The notes under the pieces are model-generated. The model did no database searches. It was given only the letters and a program-made list of their open reading frames with translations, and was not told the origin of the DNA. A stretch of 64,000 nucleotides of DNA from Blastocatellales bacterium (GTDB lineage Bacteria > Acidobacteriota > Blastocatellia > RBC074), in NCBI GenBank assembly GCA_050249535.1, contig JBFWQI010000029.1, forward strand, positions 7,039 through 71,038, in the 5' to 3' direction. Of the stretch, positions 5,264-59,001 are shown piece by piece (within the stretch, counting starts at the first letter, position 1; every line of letters starts with the position of its first letter). The position numbers were made by a program, and so were the translations under genes.

Positions 5264-5436
5264 CAGGAGATTCCGACGCCAAGACGCCAAGGGTTGCCAG
5301 GATCTTTGTAAGGATATCAATGCCTGAGTTAATCCTCACTGGAAACTCGTCGGTTGGATGCAAATGCGGGATTTTCTTCCCTGATGATTCTTGGCATTCC
5401 TTGGCGTCGGAATCTCGTGGAGTCCAAATCTCCTGG
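5264..5436. repeat. CCAAG-family hairpin element between convergent gcdH and the sigma-54 regulator
   Basis: Left arm CCAGGAGATTCCGACGCCAAGACGCCAAGGGTTGCCAGGATC. Right arm GATTCTTGGCATTCCTTGGCGTCGGAAT...ATCTCCTGG. Outer 9-bp and inner 12-bp blocks are perfectly complementary, and the right arm carries a 14-nt bulge. Confidence 0.8.
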
Positions 5437-5446
5437 CGAATCAGGA

Positions 5447-7507
5447 TCACTTCTGTTCTTCCAGTTTTCGATACAGTGTTTTCCGGCCGATGCCGAGGAG
5501 GCGCGCAGCCTTGGCCTTGTCGCCGTTGGTGTAGAGTAGCGTTCGATTGATGATGATCTGCTCGACCTCAGCCATGGTGAGCGGGATCGAGATCTCGACC
5601 GAACTGATCTGGTCGGGCGTGGCGGCGGCGCGGATGGCCTCGGGCAGGTCGTTTTCGGTGATGGTGCGTCCCGAGGCGACGATGACGGCCCGTTCCATGC
5701 AGTTTTCGAGTTCGCGGACGTTGCCCGGCCAGGGATAGCTCTTGAGCATGTGCAGCGCCCGGTCGTTGATGCCGCTGACGCGTTTGCCGCTCTTCTGCTG
5801 ATAGCGTTCGATGAAATAGGCGACGAGCTGTTCGATGTCCTCGGGGCGTTCTCTGAGAGGCGGGAGGACGATCGGGTAGACGTTGAGCCGGTAGAACAGA
5901 TCGCGTCTGAATCTTCCCTCCTCGATCTCCTTTTCCAGATCCTTATTCGTGGCGGCGATGACGCGGACATCGGTCTTGAGGACCTCGTTGCCGCCGACGC
6001 GCGAGAACTCGCCGTCCTGCAGGACGCGGAGCAGGCTGACCTGTGCGGCGAGGCTCATCTCGCCGATCTCGTCGAGGAAGAGCGTTCCTCCGCTGGCCTC
6101 CTCGAAGCGGCCGATTCGGCGGGAGCGGGCGTCGGTGAAGGCGCCGCGTTCGTGGCCGAAGAGTTCGGTCTCGAGCAGGCTGGGCGGAATTGCGCCGCAG
6201 TTGATCTTGATGAACGGGAGCGAGGCGCGCCGCGAGTTGAACTGAATCAGGCTGGCGATGAGCTCCTTGCCGGTCCCGGACTCTCCCTGCAGAAGAACGG
6301 TGGTGTTGCTGTCGGCGACCGAGAGCCCCATCTCGATGGCGCGCCGGATCTTGGGCGATGATCCGATGATCCGTTCGCCGGCGCGGGCATCGTTGAGCTG
6401 CCGTTTGAGCCTGATCACCTCAGCCGCGAGGCGGTCCTTTTCGAGGGCGACGGCGATCTGGCTAGAGATGCCGTTGAGGAGCTGCACGTCGTAGTCGGAG
6501 AATTTGGTCGACTCTGCGTGCCAGACCACGGCGATGATTCCGAGCACGCGTTCCTTGATGGCGATCGGAGAGACGAGCGCCGATTTCCCCCGGATGACCT
6601 GAGAGAAGAGATACCGCGCGAGGGGCGACTGGCGGGCGTCCTCCAGCTTGAGCGTCCGGCCTTCGTCGAGCAGTTCGCGAACGGCCGGATGGTCCGGCAA
6701 TCGCAGAGAGCGCGGCTCGCGGAACTTCGTCTCGATCGATTTCCGCAGGTCGAAACCTCGTCGCGCGCGCAGTTCATCGAAATGGAGCTGCTCGCCGTGT
6801 GCGTCGAGGATCGCTATGCACCCGTAATCGGCCTTGAGCAGTTCGAGCGCGCGGTCGATGACGAAGGTCGAGATCTCGTTGAAATCGGTCCGGGTATTGA
6901 TGTCGTTCGAGATCTCGAGCAGGAGCCGGGTGATCTCGACCTCCTTCTCCTTCTCGTTGTAGAGGCGGTTGTACTGCAGCCCGACGGAGACCTGGCTGGC
7001 AAGCCATTCGACCAGTTTTATCTCGGTCTCGGTCCATTTGTGCGGAGCGTGGCAGTAATGCAGCCCCATCACTCCCAGCAGTTCTCCGCTGTGGATGAAG
7101 GGGGCGACAAGAACCGACCGTGTTCCGATCAACTGCAGTGTGGTCCGCACCCAGATCGGGATGCTGGCGGAATGGCTGTCGTCGATCGAGTAGTGGCGCG
7201 CCCGCGGCAGGTATTTCCTGATGGTTTCGAGCGGGACGAGCGTCGTCGGGATGTTGAGCCCGAGTCCCGGCGTCAGGCTGTCGTCGCCGAGGTACTCGTG
7301 GCTGACGCGGAATCCGCCGTCCGCTGAAGGCGTGATGACGTTGCATCGGTCGACGGCCAGCCGCTGTCCGACCTCCGTCACCGCTCCCTGCAGGAACTTG
7401 TCGATGTCGATGATGCTGACGGCGTCGGGATTGATCCGGCTCAGGATCTCCTCGCGCGCCTCGTACATCTCGATCAATCGGGATTGTACCGCTTCTTCCG
7501 TGTGCAT
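5447..7507 (-). CDS. Sigma-54-dependent transcriptional activator (GAF sensor domains + AAA+ + Fis-type HTH)
   Basis: 686-aa ORF with GESGTGKELIA Walker A, an ELFGHERGAFTDA (GAFTGA-like) loop, and a C-terminal KAKAARLLGIGRKTLYRKLEE HTH. Confidence 0.9.
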   Translation of the reverse strand: MHTEEAVQSRLIEMYEAREEILSRINPDAVSIIDIDKFLQGAVTEVGQRLAVDRCNVITPSADGGFRVSHEYLGDDSLTPGLGLNIPTTLVPLETIRKYLPRARHYSIDDSHSASIPIWVRTTLQLIGTRSVLVAPFIHSGELLGVMGLHYCHAPHKWTETEIKLVEWLASQVSVGLQYNRLYNEKEKEVEITRLLLEISNDINTRTDFNEISTFVIDRALELLKADYGCIAILDAHGEQLHFDELRARRGFDLRKSIETKFREPRSLRLPDHPAVRELLDEGRTLKLEDARQSPLARYLFSQVIRGKSALVSPIAIKERVLGIIAVVWHAESTKFSDYDVQLLNGISSQIAVALEKDRLAAEVIRLKRQLNDARAGERIIGSSPKIRRAIEMGLSVADSNTTVLLQGESGTGKELIASLIQFNSRRASLPFIKINCGAIPPSLLETELFGHERGAFTDARSRRIGRFEEASGGTLFLDEIGEMSLAAQVSLLRVLQDGEFSRVGGNEVLKTDVRVIAATNKDLEKEIEEGRFRRDLFYRLNVYPIVLPPLRERPEDIEQLVAYFIERYQQKSGKRVSGINDRALHMLKSYPWPGNVRELENCMERAVIVASGRTITENDLPEAIRAAATPDQISSVEISIPLTMAEVEQIIINRTLLYTNGDKAKAARLLGIGRKTLYRKLEEQK

Positions 7508-7515
7508 AGCGGGTA

Positions 7516-57455: not shown

Positions 57456-57474
57456 TTTAAGGAGAAGGAATCAT

Positions 57475-58806
57475 ATGAGTTTTATTGAAGAGATCGTAGC
57501 CCGTGAGATCCTCGATTCGCGCGGCAATCCGACGGTCGAGGCCGAGGTCGTGCTCGAAAGCGGCATCGTCGGCCGCGCCGCGGTGCCGTCGGGCGCCTCG
57601 ACGGGAGAGAACGAAGCGGTCGAACTGCGCGACGGGGACAAGTTCAGGTTCCTCGGCAAGGGCGTCAAAAAGGCAGTCGAGAACGTCAACAAGGCGATCG
57701 CCAACGCGATCATCGGCATGGACTCCTTCGACCAGGCGGCGGTCGATCAGGCGATGATCGATCTCGACGACACGCCGAACAAGTCCAAGATCGGTGCCAA
57801 TGCGATTCTCGCCGTCTCGCTCGCAACCGCCAGGGCAACGGCGTCGGAACTCGAGATCCCGCTCTATCGCTACATCGGCGGGACCAACGCCCGGACGCTG
57901 CCCGTGCCGCTGATGAACATCATCAACGGCGGAGCGCACGCCGACAACAACGTCGATTTTCAGGAGTTCATGATCGTTCCGGCCGGCGCGCCGAGCTTCT
58001 CAGAGGCGCTGCGCTGGGGGACTGAGGTATTCCACTCGCTCAAGGGCGTGCTCAAGAAGAAGGGATATTCGACCGCCGTCGGCGACGAGGGCGGGTTCGC
58101 GCCGAGCCTCAAATCGAATGACGAGGCGATCGAGTCGATTCTCGAAGCCATCACCGCCGCCGGCTACACGCCCGGCGAACAGATCGCCATCGCGCTCGAT
58201 CCGGCCAGCTCGGAGTTCTTCATCGACGGACACTATGTCTTCAAGAAGTCTGACGGCCGCAAGCTGACTTCCGAGGAGATGGTCAAGTACTGGGTCGACT
58301 GGGCGAAGCAGTATCCGATCATCTCGATCGAGGATGGTCTGGCAGAAAACGACTGGGAGGGATGGGCAGCCTTCACCGAGGAGCTCGGCGACACCGTCCA
58401 GCTTGTCGGCGACGACCTGTTCGTGACCAACACGATCTATCTCGAACGCGGAATCGACGAGGTTGTCGCCAACTCGATTCTGATCAAGGTCAATCAGATC
58501 GGCACGCTGACCGAGACGCTCAACGCGATCGAGCTGGCGCGGACCAACAACTACACCGCGATCATCTCGCACCGCTCCGGTGAGACCGAGGATCCGTTCA
58601 TCGCCGATCTGGCCGTGGCTACCAATTCGGGTCAGATCAAGACCGGCTCAGCTTCGCGGACCGACCGCATCGCCAAGTACAACCAGCTCCTGCGGATCGA
58701 GGAGGAACTCGGCGAAACGGCCCGCTACAGCGGCTACCATTCGTTCTACCAGCTCGCCCTCGGACAGCTCAACTTCGAGGCGAATATCAAGCCGATAAAG
58801 AGATAA
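57475..58806 (+). CDS. eno: Enolase (phosphopyruvate hydratase)
   Basis: 443-aa ORF starting [25 protein letters not shown]..., with [12 protein letters not shown] and SHRSGETED. Confidence 0.95.
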
Positions 58807-58811
58807 CTTCA

Positions 58812-59001
58812 TCCACTAAGGACACGAAGAAGCACAAAGTAAATAAATTGATCCACAAAGTGCACGAAGAAGCACAAAGAGTATAAAAATCTTGGTGTCT
58901 GCTTCGTGTCACTTGGTGGATAAAAACAATTTCTTTGTGCCTCTTTGTGAACTTTGTGGATAAAAATTCTTTCTTTGTGTCTCTTCGTGTTCCTTCGTGG
59001 A
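58812..59001. repeat. CACGAAG/CACAAAG-family hairpin element between convergent eno and the ATP-grasp gene
   Basis: Left arm TCCACTAAGGACACGAAGAAGCACAAAG...TCCACAAAGTGCACGAAGAAGCACAAAGAG. The reverse complement of the right arm is TCCACGAAGGAACACGAAGAGACACAAAG...TCCACAAAGTTCACAAAGAGGCACAAAG. Confidence 0.85.

Follow-up and report, generated by a model that had tools for sequence, protein, structure and literature searches.

How did long hairpins built from arrays of short degenerate words come to lie at the ends of so many genes in one bacterial genome, and do they serve those genes or merely persist beside them? The question is raised by a 64,000-nucleotide stretch of DNA (hereafter the window) from a Blastocatellia-like acidobacterium. 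The initial annotation had described twelve loci here as purine-rich arm, spacer and complementary pyrimidine-rich arm, or as single such arms. In nine of them an A-rich, T-poor arm, a spacer and a T-rich, A-poor arm make up a long hairpin; two are solo arms, and one (47717-47991) is neither, being a split solo T-rich array. An inverted-repeat scan and a separate unbiased scan both recovered the arm/spacer/arm structure at 10059-10214, 12046-12419, 17703-17835, 36540-36774, 42236-42392, 45220-45437, 52346-52504 and 58812-59001, that at 5264-5436 being weaker than at the other scanned loci. The density of hairpins is about nine times that at other acidobacterial loci (9 per 64 kb versus 13 per 809 kb). 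The loci, unstranded unless a strand is given, and with folding z-scores against dinucleotide shuffles, are:

5264-5436: GCCAAG-word hairpin without the GTAAC terminal repeat; z -4.6 (+)/-5.1 (-), the weakest of the set
10059-10214: heptad hairpin; (GTAGAAA/GTAAAAA)n arm 10059-10105, spacer 10106-10166, (TTTCTAC)n arm 10167-10214; z -7.0/-8.1
12046-12419: heptad hairpin with nested MITE-B; first arm 12046-12120, second arm 12141-12162 plus 12377-12419; z -14
17703-17835: heptad hairpin; 30-nt arms, 100% complementary; z -9.0/-9.3
24215-24253, + strand: solo A-rich heptad array of 5.6 units, with no partner array nearby
36536-36774: CGCAAAG/GGCAAAG-word hairpin, period 9-10; arms 36540-36623 and 36707-36774; z -9.4/-11.4
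42214-42407: GCCAAG-word MITE; left end GTAGCTGCTCAGCC, right end degenerate; arms 42236-42270 and 42358-42392
43809-43840, - strand: solo GCCAAG-word arm, of the A-rich type as read on that strand
45220-45437: GCCAAG-word hairpin without GTAAC ends; 51-nt arms, 96% complementary; z -14.1/-18.5
47717-47991: solo T-rich heptad array (47717-47733 plus 47970-47991) split by MITE-B (47734-47969)
52323-52514: GCCAAG-word MITE with both terminal repeats (52323-52336, 52501-52514); arms 52346-52379 and 52471-52504
58812-59001: CACGAAG/CACAAAG-word hairpin; z -11.4

Every complete element folds far better than its dinucleotide shuffles on both strands (z from -4.6 to -18.5). In the unbiased scan the purine-rich arm came first in eight of the nine long inverted repeats of the window and second in none, the ninth (37848-37939) being a different, GC-rich hairpin. 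The asymmetry between the arms is mainly one of A versus T rather than of purine versus pyrimidine: first arms contain 3-16% T and second arms 3-17% A, with G and C roughly balanced except in the heptads. At least four T residues occur in 49-100% of the 8-nt windows of second arms in three word families, versus a background of 6% across the window; the GCCAAG arms are not U-rich (0-32%), and a discrete T-run after the stem is missing in most elements. The words have periods of 7-10 nt and a common AAG/CTT core, and their sequences vary widely across families and genomes. The A-rich-first order is common to many unrelated word families in the window and in other genomes, as a tendency: other Acidobacteria (L167/L169) have T-rich-first word hairpins, and the order is ambiguous in the AGTTTCC family. 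That arms match best within their own locus is only marginally true of the heptad family, with 26.5 of 28 positions matching at the same locus versus 25.2 at other loci.

All twelve loci adjoin or overlap a stop codon. Among the long spacers of the window, an element is present in 10 of the 16 that contain a gene 3' end versus none of the six divergent ones (one-sided Fisher p ~0.012); the elements of other genomes are distributed as 14 convergent, 13 tandem and 5 divergent. Ten of the twelve loci lie between co-directional genes, several of them (17703, 10059) with the following start codon only 5-25 nt away. In several instances the stop codon is part of the array: the aldehyde dehydrogenase stop TAA (10205-10207) lies inside the 10059 array; the last heptad at 17703, where 5 nt separate the end of the first arm from the AbgT start codon, provides the TAG (17821-17823) of a SucD-like gene; the terminal TTAGACGCC word at 45220 contains the TAG (45426-45428) of an E1 dehydrogenase; the same word at 43809 provides the TAG of an amino-acid permease; and the TAG of an 880-aa gene falls within the heptad array at 47717. 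The 43809 arm is also probably translated, as had been noted, forming the N-terminus MFRRQNAKKAKNE of a PfkB-like ORF. The solo array at 24215-24253 follows the AcrB stop codon directly and reaches to 8 nt upstream of the ornithine cyclodeaminase start codon. Two hairpins occupy convergent spacers, namely the 5264 element, between the stops of an acyl-CoA dehydrogenase (5258) and a sigma-54 activator (5447), and the 58812 element, which fills the interval from the enolase stop (58806) to that of an ATP-grasp-like gene (59011).

One subset of these elements belongs to mobile DNA. The GCCAAG elements with GTAACTGCTCAGC ends are shown to be MITEs by their terminal inverted repeats, by 8-bp target duplications (AAATGGAA, TTATAAAA and TTCTACTT/TTTTACTT) and by presence or absence between relatives, one of which (L105) carries a MITE copy at a site where the window has only ~10 bp. 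Both the 42214 and 52323 elements align to L105 MITE copies; the copy orthologous to the latter (L105, 3191-3360) shows 85% identity to it, its right end having been lost. The arms of the 42214 MITE lie between an A-run and a T-run, with terminator-like (hairpin-plus-T-run) matches on both strands, at both arm ends, and a possible degraded target duplication AAAACATG/AAAACAAT. MITE-B, 236 bp long with ends GTAACTACTCAGCC, is flanked at 47717 by the duplication TTCTACTT/TTTTACTT; we rejected a two-arm hairpin at 47717-47991, a single T-rich array interrupted by this MITE with its own ends and duplication. A truncated MITE-B copy (12163-12376, 96.8% identical to 47734-47969, with GTAACTGCTCAGCC at 12163) lies in the second arm of the 12046 hairpin. 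Since these two loci hold the same MITE, the statement that the spacers share no similarity is wrong for them; the 42214 and 52323 elements, too, both align to the same L105 copies. The class comprises only MITE-B and those GCCAAG elements that carry GTAAC ends. Of the heptad, CGCAAAG and CACGAAG hairpins, most lack terminal repeats and target duplications of their own, with spacers unrelated to one another. No transposase was found among the window ORFs, and the suggestion of a REPIN/RAYT system is not supported: the 46 longest window ORFs include no Y1 transposase, and no arm consists of a single palindromic unit.

Comparison with relatives largely shows the non-MITE hairpins to be inherited vertically at fixed sites. 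Whole-unit indels separate orthologous hairpins (58812 versus L105; L022 versus L079) and show arrays gaining and losing units by slippage; the two arms of the L079 element differ in unit number (3 versus 6). The CGCAAAG/GGCAAAG family recurs in the Kalu MAG (L024, 1512-1623; L079, 2458-2615), and relatives L106-L108 lack the 10059 element in their orthologous ALDH-AlaDH spacer. Of the 58812 hairpin L105 keeps the first arm alone, with a 9-nt unit indel, and has a MITE in place of the second arm. At the enolase 3' junction some strong hairpin is always present across relatives, ordinary terminators included: it is a canonical A-run/stem/T-run hairpin in L235-L238, GGCGTTCAGAA...TTCTGAACGCCTTTTT in L230/L231, and a 55-bp hairpin of ACGAAAC words in L232/L233/L239. 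L239 carries the 67-nt loop of L232 in reverse-complement orientation (66/67), with flanks 96% identical. These three sequences contain two pair changes with both stem sides altered; such compensatory changes are few, 55 of 500 shuffles yield an equal count, and gene conversion between the arms, in the absence of selection, explains them equally well.

We lean, by a modest balance, towards hairpins that recombine and have been expanded by slippage, and that would serve as bidirectional terminators or as RNA hairpins at 3' ends, a function inferred from position, composition and comparison. On this view the gene 3' ends of the genome are populated by palindromic, foldback-type non-coding elements, with arms that each consist of a few tandem copies of a 7-10-nt word. 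The comparisons largely show that the arms recombine with each other, so that complementarity is kept and the spacer can flip, and that the GCCAAG/GTAACTGCTCAGC MITE subset also inserts into heptad arrays. A transcript entering from either side would contain the A-rich, U-poor arm first and then the U-rich, A-poor arm, so that the polymerase would hold a weak rU:dA-rich hybrid as the long stem closes; an intrinsic terminator that lies between an A-tract and a U-tract works by this logic. The terminator reading is backed indirectly by the stop-codon adjacency, the empty divergent spacers (0/6), the canonical enolase terminators of relatives and the U-rich 3' arms; a simple terminator scan gave sites no more numerous than in shuffles.

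The elements could instead be selfish or neutral DNA, MITE/foldback repeats and slippage-prone arrays without host function, piled up at 3' ends through purging elsewhere and sharing an arm order inherited within a few families. The demonstrable mobility of the MITE subset, decay by deletion and nested insertion (L105 lacks one MITE end and one whole second arm), the solo arms and the unequal arms of L079 all fit this account, as does the frequency of GTAGAAA arrays in a viral collection, similar to that of control heptads of the same composition (15 stretches versus 11, 8 and 10). We nevertheless consider it rather unlikely, although a serious contender, given that most non-MITE hairpins have neither terminal repeats nor target duplications and have unrelated spacers, that a strong hairpin always marks the enolase junction, and that the A-rich-first order spans many unrelated word families. 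It is improbable that the primary role is RNA processing or stability, with 30-60-bp near-perfect duplexes serving as RNase III substrates or exonuclease blocks and separating or differentially stabilising cistrons as 'operon insulators': the long, nearly perfect stems, the ten loci between co-directional genes, several just 5-25 nt from the next start, and the proposal that hupS-hupL STRR hairpins raise transcript stability (PMC2670836) are in its favour, but by itself it leaves the A-first/T-second order unexplained, and the convergent junctions (5264, 58812) are better suited to termination.

Arrays that bind a protein or the ribosome seem very unlikely. By analogy, the words might bind a single-strand-binding protein of the cold-shock or S1-like type at ~7 nt each, or the 16S rRNA 3' tail, with the complementary arm masking them; AGAAAG/AAGG words are similar to Shine-Dalgarno sequences, the words recur every 7-10 nt and share an AAG/CTT core across families, CspB occupies each heptamer with a single protein and prefers heptamers rich in T (PMC4679880), and the solo A-rich array at 24215-24253 lies directly upstream of a start codon. 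This support is wholly by analogy, and the wide differences in word sequence across families and genomes argue against one specific binder. We give marginally less credence still to inverton-like switches, in which the arms would be recombination sites and a flip of the spacer would toggle a promoter or terminator. The inverted spacer of L232 versus L239 and a promoter-like match in the 10059 spacer, directed toward the downstream AlaDH gene, are consistent with such switches; yet ordinary homologous recombination can flip perfect 55-bp inverted repeats, no recombinase gene was found in the window, many elements lie between convergent genes with no gene for a promoter to drive, and promoter-like sites are no commoner than in shuffles. 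An artefact of this metagenome-assembled genome is effectively refuted: the short-read contig L234 ends within such a hairpin, so these repeats do disturb assembly, but orthologous elements with the same flanks recur in independent assemblies of differing source (window/L105, L022/L079 and L232/L233/L239).

The window elements have no Rfam match at threshold, and the heptad string was absent from the literature searched. The claim that they are not a described repeat family thus holds for these sequences but not for their kind, which is known from Xanthomonas (PMC4692102) and cyanobacteria (PMC2670836). GGGAATC heptamers form intergenic tandem arrays in X. campestris and X. axonopodis (Rehm et al. 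2015, PMC4692102), with 70-75 close array pairs per genome in which a plus-strand array 'always' precedes a minus-strand array, the same purine-rich-first order as in the window. The mean distance between these arrays and the upstream ORF is 28 nt; they lie mainly in co-directional or convergent spacers (divergent, 7-8% only) and differ in unit number between related genomes while keeping site and type (PMC4692102). They comprise a single G-rich word family, read as quadruplex-forming, whereas the window, from a different phylum, has at least four co-resident families without G-runs, with periods of 7-10 nt and one family built into a MITE. Cyanobacterial STRR heptamers and the heptad-built P6b stem of the Nostoc tRNA-Leu intron likewise pair with complementary repeats into long stem-loops, vary by whole 7-nt units on either stem side, and permit replacement of the word class at the same site (PMC2670836, PMC4476775); STRR hairpins lie between genes such as hupS and hupL (PMC2670836). 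Here the words and the phylum differ, P6b lies inside an intron rather than at gene ends, and arm order and stop-codon adjacency are not described in those studies (PMC2670836, PMC4476775).

The window MITEs may derive from an IS66-family element, members of which have GTAA ends (consensus GTAAGCG) and 8-bp target duplications (PMC11946415). They are short (~180-240 bp) and non-coding, bear GTAA-start terminal inverted repeats and 8-bp duplications, and have many copies that are present or absent between relatives; they differ in their end (GTAACTG versus GTAAGCG) and in long sub-terminal repeats that are themselves word arrays. An autonomous partner was not found. REP, BIME and REPIN elements are also intergenic hairpin repeats, mostly 3' of genes in co-directional or convergent spacers and proposed as terminators or mRNA stabilisers, but a REP is one palindrome of 20-40 bp that bears a GTAG or CGTC tag and is moved by RAYT transposases (PMC3733652); the window elements have tandem-word arms and 50-100-nt spacers, with no RAYT in the window. 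Bidirectional intrinsic terminators share the A-rich 5' side, stem-loop and U-rich 3' side, identical from both strands, and the location at convergent and tandem gene ends; their stems are ~5-15 bp, versus 30-60 bp in the window, where loops are 50-100 nt and a discrete U-run is usually missing. The foldback (FB) transposons of Drosophila, which are eukaryotic, kilobase-scale and transposase-linked, have long inverted terminal repeats made of variable numbers of tandem sub-repeats and a variable or absent middle; unlike them, the non-MITE hairpins of the window give no sign of transposition.

The first description of these loci mostly holds, and overall it is partly confirmed; its two readings, selection for a hairpin and a MITE/REPIN-like family diversifying by slippage, each find support, for different subsets and at different levels. 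The sequences are new, and the type of architecture is already known from Xanthomonas and cyanobacteria. Action as bidirectional terminators would explain the constant arm order of the elements, and it also suggests that they originated as ordinary bidirectional terminators, the A/T-rich stem bases of which were expanded by slippage. The promoter scan detected a single promoter-like site, in the 10059 spacer, such sites being no more frequent than in shuffles; a strong terminator at 17703 or 10059, so near the next start codon, would need a promoter within the element itself.

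Direct reading of the sequence at all twelve loci that the initial annotation had described as arm/spacer/arm hairpins or solo arms established that the word-hairpin feature is real and dense in the window. Tandem Repeats Finder recovered arrays of period 7, 8, 9-10 and 10 at these loci, with period 7 belonging to the first family only (the GTAGAAA/GTAAAAA heptads) and periods of 8-10 to the others (GCCAAG words, CGCAAAG/GGCAAAG and CACGAAG/CACAAAG). At eight loci the paired arms were also recovered by an inverted-repeat tool:

Inverted repeats in the window (coordinates, arm length, complementarity between arms)
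36555-36774: arms of 68 nt, 84% complementary
45220-45429: arms of 51 nt, 96% complementary
58822-58990: arms of 59 nt, 81% complementary
10060-10214: arms of 46 nt, 83% complementary
12050-12414: arms of 38 nt, 92% complementary
42236-42392: arms of 35 nt, 91% complementary
17703-17825: arms of 30 nt, 100% complementary
52346-52504: arms of 34 nt, 88% complementary

A composition-blind scan (minimum arm length 22 nt, complementarity of 80% or more, loop of at most 400 nt) found nine long inverted repeats in the window, with the purine-rich arm first in eight and second in none, as had been claimed for the complete elements; the ninth, at 37848-37939, is a separate GC-rich hairpin. Every complete locus folds far more stably than dinucleotide shuffles on both strands, with z-scores ranging from -4.6 (5264-5436) to -18.5 (45220-45437). 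The identical scan of 809 kb of other Acidobacteria loci returned only 13 long inverted repeats, one of them purine-rich-first, and hence neither the density nor the arm order of the window is background. The polarity itself is better described as A against T than as purine against pyrimidine: T makes up 3-16% of the first arms and A 3-17% of the second arms, whereas G and C are close to balance except in the heptads. In three of the four families 49-100% of the 8-nt windows in second arms hold at least four T, compared to a background of 6%; the second arms of the heptad, CGCAAAG and CACGAAG families are U-rich, but those of most GCCAAG copies are not. The proposal that arms match better within a locus than between loci was reduced, for the heptad family, to a marginal advantage.

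The GC-rich hairpin at 37848-37939, which has 34-nt arms (TGGAGTGCGACGGCCCGGCGTCGCTTTTGTAGTC...), an inner palindrome within each arm and a z-score of -11 to -13, lies between the divergent MIOX and Crp-like genes. Similar inverted doublets of the form TGGAGTGCGG...CCGCTTTTG were seen in loci of other Acidobacteria (L110 13909-14018, L114 9097-9206, L121 5571-5677 and L125 9687-9766), and it looks like a separate REPIN-like family. A long divergent spacer elsewhere (13936-14853) contains, at 14030-14123, a G+C-rich tandem repeat with periods of 11, 17 and 35 and a unit like CGGCACCGGTA, which is unrelated to the word hairpins.

All twelve loci adjoin a stop codon, and the earlier description of elements that lie between genes and clip a few terminal codons can be extended, as several of them supply the stop itself:

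Stop codons supplied by elements
17821-17823: TAG of the SucD-like gene
47979-47981: TAG of the gene for an 880-aa protein
45426-45428: TAG of the E1 dehydrogenase gene
43837-43839: TAG of the permease gene
10205-10207: TAA of the aldehyde dehydrogenase gene

In the solo arm at 43809-43840 the stop of the upstream permease lies in the TTAGACGCC word. At 43837-43846 this TAG overlaps the ATG of a PfkB-like ORF within the string ATGTTTAG, which belongs to the solo GCCAAG-word arm, so that the repeat supplies the stop codon of one gene and about 12 N-terminal codons of the next; the arm thus seems to be translated, as initially noted, as the N-terminus of the PfkB-like ORF. Elements were found in 10 of the 16 spacers bordered by a gene 3' end and in none of the 6 divergent ones (one-sided Fisher p ~0.012), a count restricted to spacers of at least 100 nt, which the elements themselves lengthen. 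A crude ORF-based classification of A-rich-first hairpins in other genomes gave 14 convergent, 13 tandem and 5 divergent placements. The 46 longest non-overlapping ORFs of the window encode, according to Pfam, metabolic, transport and regulatory proteins of ordinary kinds, and no transposase, Y1/RAYT protein or recombinase was detected among them. Judged by its type of TonB-like outer-membrane protein and by its enolase homologues, the window belongs to Acidobacteriota, and its named relatives are mostly Blastocatellia MAGs.

The suggestion of a MITE-like family proved correct for one subset of the elements. The members tested were 42214-42407, 52323-52514 and the inserts at 12163-12376 and 47734-47969. 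The locus 47717-47991, previously taken for a two-arm element, is instead a single T-rich heptad array broken by a 236-bp insert (MITE-B) whose two ends are GTAACTACTCAGCC and the reverse complement of that sequence, with TTCTACTT/TTTTACTT on either side. A nested copy of this insert, truncated at one end and 96.8% identical over 216 nt, sits in the second arm of 12046-12419, contrary to the claim that the spacers share no similarity. The terminal inverted repeat GTAACTGCTCAGC(C) is present at both ends of 47734-47969, 52323-52514 and copies in other loci (L105 2030-2230, L105 9724-9928 and L050 2817-2994), and near-matches to it number 16 in the window against 3.4 expected. The 8-bp target duplications are perfect for AAATGGAA and TTATAAAA (8/8), nearly so for TTCTACTT/TTTTACTT (7/8) and 6/8 in older copies. 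The copy at L105 2030-2230 is bounded by a perfect 8-bp duplication and corresponds to a stretch of about 10 bp in the window (51401-51412), which is not a clean empty site because of some 60 further extra bases in L105. Thus, the GCCAAG elements inside GTAACTGCTCAGC ends are MITEs, and they have moved. They are non-coding and 178-236 bp long, with copies in the window and in L105, L014, L018 and L050; MITE-B and an AGTTTCC-word variant of the 'Kalu' MAG (JADJXM01) share their ends. No autonomous transposase-encoding element with such ends was found within the window, and the MITEs had no match in the plasmid collection. The IS66 family, with terminal repeats of 20-30 bp that start with GTAAGCG and direct repeats of 8 bp (PMC11946415), shares with these MITEs the GTAA start and the 8-bp duplication, but has GCG after GTAA where they have CTG, and no TnpC-type gene is linked to them.

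The MITEs recurrently lie in or against heptad arrays, with the target TTYTACTT/AAGTAAAA. Copies ending in GTAAYTGCTCAG directly abut such arrays, the junctions being AAGTAAAA or TTYTACTT followed by GTAAC; the contacts are at L014 1257-1300, L018 960-1010, L063 1572-1620, L009 6870-6911 and, in the window, 12141-12176 and 47717-47747. The L063 MITE occupies the exact centre of a heptad hairpin, its flanks being inverted instead of direct. This pattern may mean that the MITEs insert preferentially into the arrays, or else that palindromes are extended outward.

The heptad, CGCAAAG and CACGAAG hairpins, together with those at 5264 and 45220, fall outside this mobile class: they showed no GTAAC ends and no spacer-to-spacer similarity among themselves. 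Where orthologous non-MITE hairpins could be compared, site and spacer are kept and the number of units has changed. L022 and L079, orthologous at 89.6% identity, have one heptad hairpin in common, its flanks and spacer unchanged, with a first arm of five units in L022 and three in L079. L105, which matches 49.4-60.5 kb of the window at 85-91% nucleotide identity, keeps the first arm of the CACGAAG hairpin with a 9-nt unit deletion and has a GCCAAG MITE in place of the second arm; both cases bear out the proposed diversification by slippage. The 52323 element occurs in L105 at the same site, 85% identical, with its right end lost. A metagenome scan found the 10059 hairpin absent from distant relatives with 77-78% identity in the aldehyde dehydrogenase protein (best 78%). 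Outside the MITE subset, the heptad, CGCAAAG and CACGAAG hairpins and those GCCAAG hairpins that lack such ends are inherited at fixed sites and change by whole units.

They are also kept palindromic by arm-to-arm exchange. The 67-nt loop of L239 (4404-4470) is the reverse complement of the L232 loop (11404-11470) at 66 of 67 positions, between flanks that are 96.3% identical, which indicates that the arms recombine and the spacer flips. Covariation between arms could be followed in L232, L233 and L239, where both partners were replaced in two base pairs (one from A-U to G-C, the other from A-U to U-A); given only three sequences, and 55 of 500 shuffles reaching this count, the signal is not significant. 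The short-read contig L234 carries the same enolase as L233, and diverges and ends inside the first arm of the hairpin (~2050-2073). Word hairpins break short-read assemblies.

Beyond the window, a scan of the genome collection found (GTAGAAA)3G at more than 104 loci in very different phyla. Among the matches listed, a regular-expression scan gave 23 close array pairs with the A-rich arm first and none reversed, and the composition-blind scan gave 41 purine-first and no pyrimidine-first hairpins. All word families of the window also occur in the JADJXM01 and CAZBPH01 MAGs, along with AGTTTCC and GTTGAAA words, and word hairpins of other sequence were found in an Anaerolineae MAG (L085), a Waterburya cyanobacterium (L055), Uhrbacteria (L092), Saccharibacteria (L062) and two viral-collection loci (L190 and L198). 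A single GTAGAAA family spread across phyla by horizontal transfer was rejected, as control heptads are about equally frequent: triple-repeat stretches in the viral collection numbered 15 for GTAGAAA and 11, 8 and 10 for control heptads of the same composition. These frequencies point to a general heptamer-repeat process rather than one travelling family. The arm order is not universal either, with the T-rich arm first in L167 and L169 and AGTTTCC words being ambiguous.

Four word hairpins lie within 5.6 kb of the Anaerolineae MAG JAHBAL02 (L085 2091-4498), built of GTGCAAA/GTGGAAA, GATAGTG, GGATGAA and GAGCCGTGA; three are clearly purine-first and the fourth borderline (0.60). They show that the process also operates in Chloroflexota. 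In the Waterburya MAG, three heptad hairpins (L055 661-823, 2222-2376 and 5769-5931) have a common spacer of about 90 nt (…ccttcggt…cgtccgct…gattaac.agtg…aacgggcggtagtcgtagtt) that gave no Rfam match; in this cyanobacterium the heptad-armed element forms a multi-copy family built around a structured core.

The junction downstream of the enolase gene could be compared across relatives:

Elements at the enolase 3' junction
L235-L238: canonical hairpin (A-run / 16-bp stem / T-rich) flanked by the same convergent genes
L230 and L231: canonical terminator GGCGTTCAGAA...TTCTGAACGCC, then TTTTT
L232, L233 and L239: 55-bp hairpin of ACGAAAC/ACGAAAT words, 98% paired, with the A-rich arm first
Window: CACGAAG/CACAAAG hairpin downstream of enolase
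L105: half of the CACGAAG/CACAAAG hairpin plus a MITE
L240: four tandem units of ~97 nt, each hairpin-rich

The unit hairpins of L240 (4440-4800 of ERZ25039511 contig_1925) are GC-rich, of the form gaccgcgtaaacgcggaactccaa...ggagttccgccttcaggcgg. These loci, selected only by enolase, yielded three further A-rich-first word hairpins and none that was convincingly reversed. Canonical terminators at the orthologous junction are an argument for an equivalent function of the word hairpins, and suggest that word hairpins may have originated from terminators whose A/T-rich stem bases expanded by slippage.

We infer that the word hairpins act as bidirectional terminators or 3'-end hairpins. A stable stem-loop follows the stop codon, as in a terminator, and the arm order would ensure that, from either direction, the stem closes while the polymerase holds U-rich RNA on an A-rich template, the weak hybrid required by an intrinsic terminator, with the A-rich first arm serving as the A-tract. 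At 42214-42407 explicit A and T runs match the terminator pattern on both strands, the sole clear case of two-strand T-runs. Against this terminator reading, the GCCAAG arms are not U-rich, the next start codon is only 5-25 nt from some elements, and the arm order is breached in L167 and L169 and ambiguous in the AGTTTCC words. A simple promoter and terminator scan gave counts not above shuffles. An invertible promoter switch was considered as an alternative: the spacer occurs in both orientations between genomes (L232 and L239), but the window has no recombinase gene, and a single promoter-like site was found, not above chance. Telomerase-like repeat addition at breaks, avoidance of Rho loading and a role as three-frame stop cassettes, which occur in heptad words only, were also considered. 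The promoter-like site, TTAACA-17-AATAAT (10/12), is on the minus strand at 10128-10156, in the spacer of the 10059 hairpin, and faces the alanine dehydrogenase gene.

Among known repeats, REPs share the location and proposed roles of the window hairpins but not their anatomy (PMC3733652): a REP is one palindrome of 20-40 bp tagged with GTAG or CGTC, whereas the window arms are tandem arrays. With this anatomy and no Y1_Tnp match among the window ORFs, the proposed REPIN/RAYT origin was rejected, and GTAG and GACG inside the words are treated as coincidence. A catalogued Rfam family can likewise be set aside, as a tRNA was the only match to reach the gathering threshold and sub-threshold microRNA-precursor look-alikes are artefacts of long low-complexity stems. 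The closest parallels are the 70-75 convergent pairs of GGGAATC heptamer arrays per Xanthomonas genome, 'always' on the plus and then the minus strand, at a mean of 28 nt from the upstream ORF, rare in divergent spacers and of species-variable unit number (Rehm et al., PMC4692102). The window hairpins share with these and STRR-like paired arrays the tandem short words, intergenic location, convergent arrays, nearness to the upstream stop and rarity in divergent spacers. Architecture and polarity are the same, but the Xanthomonas pairs were read as quadruplex-forming (PMC4692102), and GGG runs, on which a quadruplex of the GGGAATC type depends, are absent from the words of all twelve loci. In cyanobacteria, STRR heptamers fold into hairpins in the hupS-hupL spacer (PMC2670836), the P6b stem of Nostoc trnL contains heptads with 7-nt-unit changes and word-class swaps (PMC4476775), and heptamer arrays are also known from Beggiatoaceae, cyanobacteria and Bacteroidetes (PMC4679880). 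A literature search turned up neither these words nor elements of this sort in Acidobacteria, and the exact heptad strings were not found either. Hence, the view that the family was undescribed holds for its sequences and not for its kind: paired short-word hairpins and MITEs were known (PMC4692102 for the paired arrays), and the additional observations are that several word families reside together and follow one arm order, that the elements adjoin stop codons, that loops invert and that the elements are equivalent in position to terminators.

In its broadest form, the terminator reading would make tandem-word, A-rich-first hairpins a widespread unrecognised class of bidirectional terminators, derived by slippage from ordinary ones and kept palindromic by recombination, with flipping loops. 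Such a class would explain some of the canonical terminators that are 'missing' from Acidobacteria, cyanobacteria, Chloroflexi, candidate-phyla-radiation bacteria and Xanthomonas. Its members would lack a discrete U-run because the U-rich 3' arm substitutes for it, and the class would include the Xanthomonas GGGAATC pairs and cyanobacterial STRR hairpins as the same thing. We regard this broad form as rather unlikely.

As the hairpins supply the stop and a few terminal codons of their neighbours, serve as MITE targets, invert and break short-read assemblies, they matter for annotation and for interpreting structural variants in metagenome-assembled genomes. Should they be no more than selfish or neutral repeats, they constitute an ordinary new repeat family. 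If the functional reading is true, one origin and mechanism would unite oddities so far described separately, such as the GGGAATC pairs of Xanthomonas and the STRR hairpins of cyanobacteria, and an A-rich word arm, a loop and a U-rich word arm right after the stop codon would provide a transcript-end rule for poorly studied phyla, in which standard terminator predictors do badly.
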